Assembly: GCA_029244985.1 (NCBI GenBank) | Contig: JAQWQD010000010.1 | Span: 155,828 to 219,827 of the forward strand | DNA: 64,000 bases | Direction: 5' to 3' | From: Gammaproteobacteria bacterium | GTDB taxonomy: Bacteria; Pseudomonadota; Gammaproteobacteria; Pseudomonadales; Pseudohongiellaceae | In this document: in pieces, positions 6,937-9,391 of the stretch | How positions within the stretch are numbered: the stretch's first letter is position 1 | Layout: every line of letters starts with the position of its first letter | The notes under the pieces: generated by a model | What the model was told of the DNA's origin: nothing | The model's database searches: none | What the model saw: the letters and a program-made list of their open reading frames with translations, nothing else | Program-made: the position numbers and the translations under genes

Positions 6937-8040
6937 CTAAGGCCAATCTTTCGAAGGCGTTAAAAAAGAGCCTTTCGTATATTGCGCCAACTGCCAGTAA
7001 ATAGCTGCAGCACTTGGGTCCCCTTCCAATGGCATCAATATGACATTGACCGGAATTGACTGAGGTAATTCTTCAACTGCTTCCTCAAATAATTCCGCCC
7101 GGTCTGCGGGTGTTATCAGAGAACCTCTGGCACCCCGGTCATCAAGGGTAGGTAAGCCGTCGGTAATTAGGAAAATATTATCTGGCCTAGGTGACATATT
7201 TGCTACTGCCCGAAATACCTGGGCCATATTTGTGCCACTGTCCGGCACTATGCCTTTTACGTTATCAATTACCTGATTAAGTTGGTCTCGATCCGCGACC
7301 TCTAACCACCTATCTTCTGTACCAGGCAGCACGGCTTTGTATTCAGTGTTGAAATTCCACATTTGATATTGGCTGGTGATGGGTAACTGGGTACTCACCC
7401 AGTCCACAGTATTGACAACTCGTTGCCATTTTGGCGCATTGCGCTTGCGCTCGTCATCCATATTGCGTGTGCGAATGATATTTACGATAGTGCTATCCAG
7501 CATACTGGCCGAGCTGTCTATGAGCACAAGAATTCTTTGGCCGCCGAGAAATAAGCCAGAGAGATACTGACGATTCCCATCCCCTAGAAATTGACGAACA
7601 CTATTGCCTTCCTGTTCGAAGGCGCTTGCCTGCAATCGCAATAACTCATTTTCCAGAGTCTCTATATCTGAACGAAGTTGAGCCACGTCTTCGACGCTGG
7701 CCATACTGTTGTTTTCAAGTGCAGCGAGTTCCTGCAAGAACGTGTCTATTTGCTCCAAGATCTGGCGCGCAAGACCCTCCGCCGCGACTACCTCAAAATC
7801 GACATCAGAAAGAATATTGCGAACCCGAACCAAACCAAGCTGACCTTCCTGAATTTCTTCTTCCAACAAATTTATTTCTGCAGTCAGGTCTGGGCTGGTT
7901 GCTTCTGGAGAGACGGAGCTAGCATGATCCAAGATTAGAAAAATAAGAATCACAGCGCCAAAGCCACAAAACATGACGTCAAGAAAGGCTAAGCTTAATG
8001 GATTAACTTTGCGTCTGTTTGATTTACTATTACTAGCCAT
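6937..8040 (-). CDS. ExbD/TolR-like TM anchor + coiled coil + periplasmic vWA (MIDAS) domain protein (paralog 1)
   Basis: N-terminal NPLSLAFLDVMFCGFGAVILIFLIL (compare ExbD TPFIDVMLVLLIIFMV). A coiled-coil region follows. vWA motifs are ILVLIDSSASM (DxSxS) and IFLITDGLPT. The start overlaps the upstream stop by 8 nt. Confidence 0.7.
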   Translation of the reverse strand: MASNSKSNRRKVNPLSLAFLDVMFCGFGAVILIFLILDHASSVSPEATSPDLTAEINLLEEEIQEGQLGLVRVRNILSDVDFEVVAAEGLARQILEQIDTFLQELAALENNSMASVEDVAQLRSDIETLENELLRLQASAFEQEGNSVRQFLGDGNRQYLSGLFLGGQRILVLIDSSASMLDSTIVNIIRTRNMDDERKRNAPKWQRVVNTVDWVSTQLPITSQYQMWNFNTEYKAVLPGTEDRWLEVADRDQLNQVIDNVKGIVPDSGTNMAQVFRAVANMSPRPDNIFLITDGLPTLDDRGARGSLITPADRAELFEEAVEELPQSIPVNVILMPLEGDPSAAAIYWQLAQYTKGSFLTPSKDWP

Positions 8041-9391
8041 CGTTAACCTGAATCAGATTTATTTCGTCACCATTGCTTTCGAATTGGATACAGTCACCCA
8101 GCTTCAGTAATTGCTCTCCTGTTACTAGATTATCGTTCAAAAATACTTTCTGCACCAAACTATTGAGGTAAACACCCTCCTCGCGCAGCTCAATTCGACC
8201 CAGAGACTCTGGCAAATTTTCTATGTCCATGACTAGCGTATTTATGTCCAGCGACTTTCCATTCAGTACTGGCTTGTTCTTAATTTCAAGCTTATCAATT
8301 GCAATAGCGCGATTAGCATAAAGTACATGAGTCGGGTTATCGCCTCTGTCGCTATTTATGTTTTCATTTTGCTTAGTCGGTTTAATTCTATCTAATTTTG
8401 CTATCGGCAATCTGCTAACGAGATGAATGCCTCCCTTCGCAGTAACGATGTGAGCTTTGTTCTGATGACAAGCTTCGTTAACTAAATGATTTTTAACTAC
8501 AACGAAATTTTCCGTAGTATCGGTAGACGCTAAAAAGCCAGGAAGGTCTGCGATGGCTTGACTGAATAAGATATCAACATTGCTGCTATCAACTAATGAA
8601 TTAATCTGTTCATTGATTTTTTTGTAATATTCATTGAGATTCCTTATCAGGCTTTCTCTCGGAAGTTTAGCAGTATGTATGGCGCTTTCGCTTTTAAGCT
8701 CCAGCAAGAGTGTTTTTTCTTTCTCGTCCTGCAATAACCACGAAGGTAACTCATTATAGAGCTGTTGCTCAGATTCAGCGTTATGTTGAGGGTTAAAACG
8801 ACACTGCTGAATAAACATGTCCGTTGCAATTTGCATCATTAAATTCATAAAGTTCTGACTGCCAACTCCAGGGATCTGAATAACACCATCGGTCCTGAGA
8901 TGCTCATCAACAAGTGTCAGTTTCGAAAGTACTACCTGATGCAATTGGATATCAGCATAGACAATTTGTTCTCTTTCGGAGGATACCAGTGCTGCTGCTA
9001 ACGCAGAATCAACAACACCAATCGGCGTAAAAGGACACTGTTGTGCAAGGCCTAATAGAATGGCTAACTGTGGTCGAGTAAAGTTACCTGGCACTGCAAA
9101 AATAACGTCTGCATCAATCTCGCCGGCATCGGCCAGGTGCATTAATTGAGCATATGCCAGATCAGCATAGTGTCTAACTTTTTTGCTGTGGGAAATGGGC
9201 TCTAGACTCAGATCGCACCAATACTTGCTAAAGCTGTGGGTTGGTCGCAATCGTGCTTGTCGTTCCGCAGATTCCCCCACCTCGAGTTTGTCATCTGCTG
9301 CCAATGCAAATCCGGGGCTCTCTAAGATGACGCCACTCTCATCACCGACCTTAATCTCACGGTCATTTAGCTCTATTACTTTTAATGACAT
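8033..9391 (-). CDS. Cytoplasmic Hsp70/actin-fold protein with degenerate nucleotide-binding motifs and an FHA-like C-terminal domain (tentative)
   Basis: [40 protein letters not shown] aligns with Hsp70 [33 protein letters not shown]. The phosphate-1 DLGTTNS position reads ELNDREI and the DLGGGTFD position reads DIQLHQVV. The C-terminal LGRIEL....[20 protein letters not shown] resembles an FHA core. No signal peptide or TM segment. Confidence 0.6.
   Translation of the reverse strand: [452 protein letters not shown]

Follow-up and report, generated by a model that had tools for sequence, protein, structure and literature searches.

A pseudo-Hsp70/FHA protein encoded between the channel and vWA genes of a TolQ-like motor cluster: a candidate cytoplasmic adaptor in marine Gammaproteobacteria

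In the 64,000-nucleotide stretch of a Pseudohongiellaceae genome analyzed here (assembly GCA_029244985.1, contig JAQWQD010000010.1, positions 155,828 to 219,827; hereafter the window), a gene at 8033..9391 on the minus strand lies between the gene for a TolQ/ExbB/MotA-like channel and the genes for two membrane-anchored von Willebrand factor A (vWA) proteins. A first-pass annotation, made from the letters alone, had described the product of this gene as an Hsp70/actin-fold protein with ablated ATP-binding loops and an FHA-like tail, and had proposed it as a cytoplasmic scaffold or regulator of the motor. The locus thus raises a question: what is a chaperone-type ATPase fold without its ATP motifs doing inside the gene set of an envelope motor? 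The reading that we favor, with a probability of roughly 0.5, is that the protein does no catalysis and serves the TolQ-like/vWA motor as an adaptor or regulator on its cytoplasmic side.

The gene itself is well defined. The listed and translated open reading frame encodes 452 residues from an ATG start to a stop codon at 8033-8035, its N-terminus is conserved among homologues, and the plus-strand reading of 8033..9391 is riddled with stops; the first-pass annotation gave no strand, which is minus here, as for all window features described below. The end of the upstream channel gene is separated from the target start by 18 nt, and the target stop overlaps the start of the first vWA gene by 8 nt (ATGGCTAG, 8033-8040), an overlap that also occurs in L082, a locus of the sister clade discussed below. 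Both the 8-nt overlap and the position of the gene, wedged between channel and stator genes, are therefore as originally described, and every peptide quoted at that stage was found in the translation: VIELNDREI (residues 5-13), DIQLHQVV (147-154), a 37-residue stretch (99-135), and the C-terminal GDCIQF. Kyte-Doolittle hydropathy stays below 1.6 in all 19-residue windows of the target, and in a scan of hydropathy and N-termini across 2917-18482 every other product carries a signal peptide, a lipobox, or a transmembrane (TM) segment. Because the target alone lacks a membrane or export signal, it is the only clearly cytoplasmic member of the cluster at the level of the hydropathy scan, in agreement with the earlier claim.

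Standard family models do not recognize this protein. The target has no family match in Pfam, NCBIfam, or PADLOC, and no match to the HSP70 family at E ≤ 1e-1 in Pfam or NCBIfam; neither phmmer with the target alone nor a profile of close homologues (alignment A1) matched any PDB sequence. The family is nevertheless large: 521 homologues, all labelled ‘hypothetical’, were found in a database clustered at 90%, and 1,642 representatives at 50% clustering (E ≤ 1e-3; 849 of them at E ≤ 1e-30), numbers that argue against a chance open reading frame. Among the 150 representatives listed, most are 420-490 residues long and match the target end to end, a few being shorter or lacking a match to the tail. 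The family is marked by the signatures E-[LIV]-N-D, D-x-Q-L-H-Q, and R-F-[DN]-P-x-H-x-A-x-x-E-Q. Contigs from seawater metatranscriptomes map onto the gene at low depth and more than 99% identity, and they cross both the junction between the TolQ-like gene and the target (9109-9493) and that between the target and vWA1 (8021-8162), which is consistent with co-transcription of the target with its neighbours.

According to the predicted structure, the N-terminal domain (residues 1-330, 8402..9391) is an Hsp70-type fold of the ASKHA superfamily (acetate and sugar kinases, Hsc70, actin). An AlphaFold2 monomer model built on 32 homologues gave a mean predicted local distance difference test (pLDDT) score of 86.7 for the whole protein and about 90 for residues 1-330, and the 50 matches listed by Foldseek in PDB were all nucleotide-binding domains (NBDs) of Hsp70, Hsp110, or Ssz1, with E values of 3e-16 to 2e-14. 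The target shares the four-subdomain fold of the Hsp70/DnaK NBD (PF00012) over approximately 350-390 columns, at 10-14% identity and with TM-scores of at most 0.70, normalized to matched structures of about 380 residues. At the sequence level, hhalign of a 139-sequence family profile (A3) against the DnaK NBD aligned 173 colinear columns with an E value of 0.023; the probability was low because the DnaK template was a single sequence. The aligned pairs, target first, include AVPGNF/TVPAYF, VVDSALAAA/IINEPTAAA, YADIQLHQ/VYDLGGGT, GVGSQNF/HLGGEDF, and RFNPQ/RNDPL, and the colinear signatures shared with the Hsp70 NBD can be written as VGxxAxxQAxxxP, (A/T)VPxxF, D/E-x-x-x-AAA, GxxxF, and RxDP. 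The narrower A1 profile aligned 26 columns with DnaK. Against PDB sequences, the N-terminal 330 positions of the 139-sequence profile retrieved Hsp70s below threshold (Ssz1, E 0.13), and one further marginal match was to an unrelated protein (E 1.6). The pairings proposed by the first-pass annotation for its claim of colinearity with the Hsp70 NBD were thus reproduced, and the structure prediction and structural comparison that it had suggested as a check returned an Hsp70-type fold.

This domain is followed by a length-variable linker (residues 331-351, 8339..8401), which has large insertions and deletions in alignment A1 and pLDDT below 50 at residues 333-349, and then by an FHA domain in place of the substrate-binding domain and lid of Hsp70. 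Tested for membership of the Hsp70 chaperones, the target has the fold and lacks a score above the curated hidden Markov model threshold, the nucleotide motifs, and the substrate-binding sandwich with its lid. It is a domain derived from an Hsp70 NBD, and by these operational tests it falls outside the Hsp70 chaperone family.

The loops that bind phosphate in Hsp70 have been replaced by other, equally conserved sequences. The phosphate-1 position, DLGTTNS in Hsp70, is occupied by the β1-β2 hairpin loop VIELNDRE (residues 5-12, 9356..9379; model strands 4-7 and 12-17), and the phosphate-2 position, DLGGGTFD in Hsp70, by a hairpin loop at residues 145-154 (8930..8959) that hhalign paired with VYDLGGGTFD. 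In the model, ELND and QLH form the tips of the β1-β2 hairpin and of the hairpin of strands 142-148 and 152-161, which are the ASKHA phosphate-1 and phosphate-2 positions. Conservation was counted over 139 representatives with less than 50% mutual identity and 25-47% identity to the window protein, in which the loops take the forms E-[LIV]-N-D and D-x-[QH]-L-H-[QR]. Retention is 122/139 for E7, 123/139 for N9, 137/139 for D10, 122/139 for D147 (with Glu in another 14), 132/139 for L150, and 135/139 for H151, that is, 88-99% for each of these six loop positions; D128 is kept in 133/139, and W58, R198, and Q209 in all 139. A canonical DxG or GGG loop at the aligned positions was found in none of the 139 representatives. 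The adenosine GG motif has likewise become S-x (FS-x in the target), a change shared across the representatives, and the position of the catalytic lysine (DnaK K70, residue 56 here) varies among R, Q, K, and H.

The loop readings ELNDREI and DIQLHQVV of the first-pass annotation therefore hold for the window protein and extend to the whole family; orthologues with canonical DxG/GGG loops, which would have marked this copy as simply divergent, did not appear. Since the altered loops are conserved across the 139 representatives, they are not a quirk of one copy. Judged from this alignment, the replacement of the ATP motifs is early or ancestral and under purifying selection, and the protein probably does not turn over ATP.

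The C-terminal tail (residues 352-452, 8036..8338) adopts an FHA fold with non-canonical binding loops. Modelled alone, residues 350-452 form 11 strands with a pLDDT of 86, and all 50 Foldseek matches listed for this model are FHA domains, with probability 1.00 (0.96 in one case) and TM-scores of about 0.6-0.7 for most; kinesin-3, Ki-67, YscD, EmbR, Rv0020c, and GarA are among the structural neighbours listed. By sequence, the family profile matched the FHA domains of KIF13B (E 8.4e-5) and EmbR (E 7e-4) in PDB. No match to Pfam FHA (PF00498) was obtained for the window protein itself, while the scores of distant, full-length relatives range from 37.7 to 49.3 bits, above the cut-off of 20.7. 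Because the family profile matches FHA domains and relatives exceed the Pfam threshold, the tail is a true FHA homologue: it has the 11-stranded fold and the sequence homology of an FHA domain, and it lacks the canonical phosphothreonine (pThr)-binding residues and a cognate kinase.

At the pThr-binding positions, the window protein has K-P in place of G-R, P-E-x-L in place of S-R-x-H, and L-Q in place of the β6-β7 Asn, leaving a later Asn (N419) and GD (432-433) as its only canonical FHA features. Two of the three first-pass statements about the tail are borne out, namely that the last 100 residues or so form an FHA β-sandwich and that the usual SxxH is absent, PExL standing in its place. The third, a retained GR pair, was mistaken: in both the model and the alignment, G398-R399 sits in strand β5, where a canonical FHA domain carries the His of SxxH, and not at the β3-β4 Gly-Arg, so we rejected it as the canonical pair. 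The peptide-binding loops of the window clade are conserved yet different (N..NG, LPExLG), and this conservation suggests that the domain retains a phospho-independent ligand.

The genomic setting of the gene is invariant. Synteny was examined in 80 species-level genomes of close relatives (OM182, Pseudohongiellaceae, and other marine Gammaproteobacteria), the best-matching of which is 94-96% identical. The TolQ-like gene stands directly upstream of the target in 80/80 loci, and vWA1 and vWA2 follow it in 79/80 and 77/80, always being present where the contig reaches. The full invariant order runs from an exported TPR protein through a Ser-rich lipoprotein, a lipoprotein, a bitopic TPR protein, a PEGA/FGE-sulfatase protein, and a small exported protein to the TolQ-like channel, the target, vWA1, vWA2, two lipoproteins, and an M48 peptidase. 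The core of this order was also found in the metagenome loci that cover it and in six more distant branches, and the slot of the target between the A (channel) and B (vWA) genes was invariant in all loci examined, down to 25% identity. The whole 13-gene cluster also occurs, in the same order, in the complete genome of a cultured organism, Porticoccaceae bacterium LTM1 (CP127080.1, 495514-516806; locus L168).

The genes that flank the target match those of a proposed ion-driven envelope motor. The channel (A subunit; 9410..10222) has 270 residues, a Pfam MotA_ExbB match (E 9e-17), and a GFLGTVRGI signature. On the other side, vWA protein 1 (6937..8040) consists of a short basic tail, a TM helix with Asp21 (FLDV), a long coiled coil, and a vWA domain with a DxSxS motif resembling a metal ion-dependent adhesion site (VLIDSSASM). 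vWA protein 2 (5846..6856), its paralogue, has a TM helix with Asp18 (FLDV), a long coiled coil, and a vWA-like domain with FVIDTSGSM; the two are weakly similar (E 2e-6), and vWA1 matches Pfam VWA_2, whereas vWA2 has no Pfam vWA match despite its DxSxS. The TM aspartates D21 and D18 lie within an invariant FLDVxxCGFGA that is conserved in both the window clade and the kinase clade. No neighbouring product matches the ExbD, TolR, or MotB families in Pfam or NCBIfam. The cluster therefore combines a TolQ/ExbB-like gene without TolR, ExbD, or MotB and a heterologous pair of vWA proteins with a TM aspartate at the pore, features of a motor class proposed in 2025 (PMC12204202, Mol Biol Evol), in which a TolQ-like protein is paired with two ‘TPH-vWA’ proteins and TolR is absent. 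That class was proposed from gene neighbourhoods and AlphaFold3 models, with an A5:B2 model, and an Idiomarina motor was used in that work. On these features we assign the window cluster to the TM-Asp-vWA class of PMC12204202.

The published model comprises A5:B2 only; in all loci examined here, a fourth gene, for a cytoplasmic protein, separates A from B. Neither an Hsp70-like nor an FHA protein is mentioned in PMC12204202 or in those of its supplements that were available, and in the literature we found no description of an Hsp70-like/FHA protein alongside TolQ-like or vWA genes. The Hsp70 systems of a 2020 paper in eLife are unrelated. The invariant synteny strongly suggests a scaffold or regulator role for the motor, in which the target would interact with motor components.

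A sister clade of the family offers a second line of evidence. Its members carry, within the same cluster, an FHA domain with SRxH and S-x-Y-G-T-x-V-N, and the product of their bitopic TPR gene begins with a Ser/Thr kinase domain whose HRDxK and DFG motifs are intact (L082, 2958-5279; equivalents in L089-L160). The corresponding window protein is a bitopic TPR protein without a kinase domain (12645..14177), which aligned in BLASTP with residues 337-773 of the L082 kinase at 32% identity over 440 residues (E 3e-57); this alignment identifies it as the orthologue of the periplasmic part of the kinase-TPR protein, minus the kinase. No kinase homologue was found anywhere in the 64-kb window. In the loci that could be assessed, a canonical FHA domain goes with the kinase (35/35) and a non-canonical FHA domain with its absence (71/71). 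Three more non-canonical branches also lack the kinase, one of which, P0160, groups with the kinase clade.

The two clades also differ in the cytoplasmic tail of the bitopic PEGA/FGE-sulfatase protein. In the window this PorK/GldK-like protein (10568..12661) has a short cytoplasmic tail, a TM helix at residues 48-66, five PEGA repeats (Pfam PEGA, 1.8e-48), and an FGE-sulfatase domain (1.3e-39), with a match to GldK (TIGR03525, E 4.7e-28) that falls below the cut-off. Its juxtamembrane tail carries the motif IIPIDFTP (I-x-P-x-x-F; 12569..12592), conserved in 72/73 window-clade and 44/50 kinase-clade loci; this short peptide may be where a cytoplasmic partner docks. In the kinase clade (L082, 5378-7822, and equivalents), the protein is extended at its cytoplasmic N-terminus by a domain of about 110 residues with sub-threshold FHA similarity (best E 0.004), and the tail carries EDSAYVT(K/Q/R)PPE (YVTxPP) in 42/50 loci, a motif found in 0/73 window-clade loci. 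The Thr of YVTxPP is a possible phospho-acceptor and the better candidate of those considered. Two others were set aside: a Thr in the vWA2 tail is conserved both with and without the kinase and is hence uninformative, and the kinase juxtamembrane motif E-[TS]-x-x-x-[IV]-[RH]-P, as an FHA ligand, is unconvincing since the residue is often Ser. In the kinase clade an OmpA-family gene closes the cluster, in the place that the two lipoprotein genes and the M48 peptidase gene take in the window, and none of the clusters was seen to encode a PP2C phosphatase.

These observations can be assembled into a mechanism. In the motor proposed here, a TolQ/ExbB-like channel would receive the two TM-Asp vWA proteins as the ‘B’ subunits inserted in its pore, and the target would be the third component, on the cytoplasmic side. 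Its docking sites would be the cytoplasmic face of the motor and the short conserved tails of the bitopic partners: those of the two vWA proteins and, in the PEGA/FGE protein, the tail with the I-x-P-x-x-F motif. Docking would take place through the FHA domain, which replaces the substrate-binding domain of Hsp70, and possibly also through clefts of the NBD-like domain, and would link the motor with its periplasmic machinery or control motor activity. With a canonical FHA domain and a TM Ser/Thr kinase both present, docking in the sister clade is probably controlled by phosphothreonine; with both the kinase and the pThr-reading residues gone, docking in the window lineage is probably constitutive. 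A more ambitious form of this proposal is put forward tentatively: ion-driven motors of the MotA/ExbB type with this gene set would make up a new class, and the target would be their obligatory third subunit on the cytoplasmic side, an Hsp70-derived pseudoenzyme that grips the cytoplasmic face of the motor or the stator tails and works as a clutch or gate. Ancestrally, it would have read threonine phosphorylation by a TM kinase that senses the periplasm.

Several observations weigh against the adaptor reading or parts of it. All named family members seen belong to the Gammaproteobacteria. The metatranscriptome contigs can include DNA carry-over. The correlation between FHA type and kinase reflects few independent events, essentially two clades plus L165, and metagenome loci were retrieved with two patterns, one of them an FHA motif; that scan, with alignment A5, yielded a set biased towards members with a canonical FHA domain. 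Most of the kinase clade, moreover, lacks the arginine of the canonical Gly-Arg (GS, GT, or GA, with GR in 4), so pThr binding is not assured even there. Finally, acidic residues are kept at the metal and catalytic positions of the ASKHA site (E7, D10, D128, and D147) and a histidine, H151, has been added, so the protein may still possess a pocket for a ligand or a metal.

The retention of these four acidic residues keeps alive the alternative that the protein is a nucleotide or small-ligand switch. Its remodelled cleft, lined by E7, N9, D10, D128, D147, H151, Q152, R198, H203, E208, and Q209, would bind a Mg-nucleotide or a phosphorylated ligand non-canonically, and closure of the lobes would make the motor responsive to the state of metabolism or signalling. 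Near-invariance of the substituted loops, together with the 88-99% conservation of the acidic ASKHA residues, is the pattern of an active pocket rather than of decay, and one of the best structural matches is Ssz1, an Hsp70 known to bind ATP but to make no catalytic use of it. The target resembles Ssz1 in that it too is probably a structural partner and not a cycling ATPase. However, Ssz1 and Hsp110 keep the nucleotide motifs and bind ATP, whereas in the target the phosphate-1 loop, the phosphate-2 loop, and the adenosine GG are all replaced: the glycine-rich loops that hold phosphate through backbone amides are gone, and the lysine equivalent to DnaK K70 is variable. The adenine/ribose residues of the Hsc70 IIB helix would correspond to Y212, L215, and P216, as placed by eye beyond the range of the hhalign alignment, which also speaks against nucleotide. 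On balance, we regard a ligand switch as improbable.

The protein could instead be a dedicated assembly chaperone and not a stable motor subunit, a holdase for the basic N-terminal tails of the vWA proteins or for the PEGA/FGE tail during membrane insertion. Its Hsp70 ancestry, its translational coupling to vWA1, and the short, conserved nature of the vWA tails would all fit such a role. Chaperoning by Hsp70 needs a substrate-binding domain and an ATP cycle, however, and the target has neither; no DnaJ- or GrpE-like partner was found among the cluster products in Pfam or NCBIfam, and the FHA domain with its kinase co-variation is better suited to signalling or docking. This role therefore appears rather less probable still.

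The ASKHA fold also invites comparison with the actin-like filaments of MreB, ParM, and MamK, and a cytoskeletal filament of this kind might position or cluster motors, much as the Myxococcus Agl-Glt motor is linked to MreB (PMC11761067). All 50 structural neighbours listed are of the Hsp70 family, with no MreB, ParM, or FtsA among them, and filament formers need nucleotide, for which the motifs are gone. Hsp70 NBDs are not known to polymerize, and a filament is very unlikely. A bystander, merely a cytoplasmic gene located in the cluster, is less credible than any of these given its invariant A-B position in all loci examined and its overlapping reading frame.

The adaptor reading can be placed beside several known systems. 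PilM, which binds the N-terminal tail of PilN, the cytoplasmic domain of GspL/EpsL, and FtsA are ASKHA-fold holders of the short tails of bitopic proteins, and the cytoplasmic domain of GspL lacks a nucleotide site. They serve as a working analogy for the mechanism proposed here, although their branch of the superfamily is a different one and none of them appears among the 50 structural matches listed. For the tail, the best structural and sequence neighbours are the FHA domains of kinesin-3 (KIF1A/KIF13B) and of the type III secretion proteins YscD/EscD (Yop-YscD_cpl), which act without phosphothreonine and, like the target, lack the canonical pThr-binding Arg, Ser, and His. In YscD, an FHA-like domain forms the cytoplasmic foot of an envelope machine; the FHA domains of YscD/EscD are membrane-tethered, whereas that of the target is soluble and fused to an Hsp70-like NBD.

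In Pseudomonas aeruginosa, the PpkA-Fha1-PppA system controls assembly of an envelope machine, the H1 type VI secretion system, by threonine phosphorylation, through a TM Ser/Thr kinase with a periplasmic sensor domain and a cytoplasmic FHA protein. The arrangement of kinase-TPR and FHA proteins in the sister clade resembles it, with the differences that the FHA domain is fused to a pseudo-Hsp70, that the window clade has no kinase, and that no phosphatase partner was seen. A cytoplasmic FHA domain is also associated with the TolQ/ExbB-like motor of the Myxococcus Agl-Glt gliding machine: that of GltG, which is predicted to sit against the cytoplasmic side of the pentamer formed by TolQ-like AglR (PMC11761067). 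GltG, however, is a bitopic TonB-like transducer with FHA domains in cis and no Hsp70-like domain, so that the FHA fold is all that it shares with the target.

The target family is undescribed, as is its combination of a pseudo-ATPase ASKHA adaptor with an FHA reader. It is definable as a new protein family, so far annotated as ‘hypothetical protein’ and without a Pfam or NCBIfam model, and a cultured carrier exists. Ion-driven 5:2 motors (MotAB, ExbBD, TolQR, GldLM, and ZorAB) are increasingly seen as a general power source of the envelope, and to the TolQ-like/vWA class among them no function has yet been assigned. Adding a conserved cytoplasmic partner, with its gene between those for A and B, would alter the picture of this motor by giving it a cytoplasmic input or anchoring point, and the sister clade would provide a natural comparison between regulated (kinase) and constitutive forms. 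The protein would also illustrate clearly how the ATPase domain of an Hsp70 can become a pseudoenzyme scaffold, which bears on the re-use of chaperone folds. If the more ambitious proposal is correct, this would be, to our knowledge, the first 5:2-type motor found under Ser/Thr-kinase/FHA control and the first motor with an Hsp70 fold among its components.

The remaining genes of the cluster encode envelope proteins. Downstream of vWA2 lie two lipoproteins with lipobox-like N-termini (5172-5849 and 4471-5190), and the downstream genes are syntenic in 72-75 of the 80 loci. The M48 peptidase lipoprotein (2917-4395; Pfam Peptidase_M48, 8e-39; HEIAH motif) ends the cluster; it has a C-terminal extension of about 230 residues and is present in most non-kinase branches, including Porticoccaceae LTM1. 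Upstream cluster genes, syntenic in 54-70/80 loci, include a lipoprotein (14220-15404) and the Ser-rich lipoprotein (15401-16534), both with signal-like N-termini; the N-terminal two-thirds of the latter are of low complexity and extremely rich in Ser, Pro, and Gln. The least conserved members are the small exported protein (10256-10564; 50/80 loci) and this Ser-rich lipoprotein (54/80). The first gene of the cluster encodes the exported TPR protein (17097-18482), again with a signal-like N-terminus, and its relatives (L165, 3518-4819; L166, 322-1728; L168, 1284-2624) show weak TonB_C matches that hint at a TonB-like element.

With a PorK-like periplasmic module next to a motor of the MotA/ExbB type, the cluster recalls PorLM-PorKN in the type IX secretion system. 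An anti-phage defence (Zorya-like) reading of the cluster was rejected: there is no ZorB, ZorC, or ZorD, the cluster consists of envelope proteins, and PADLOC returned no system-level match, its marginal hits being ZorA2 (6e-5), on the core of the TolQ-like channel, and PtuA (8e-4), on a coiled stretch. At its flanks, the cluster is bordered by two tandem GT9 heptosyltransferase genes of the lipopolysaccharide core on one side and by a hydantoinase/oxoprolinase gene on the other (462-2583 and 18715-20733), and the heptosyltransferase genes keep this place in most of the 80 related genomes.

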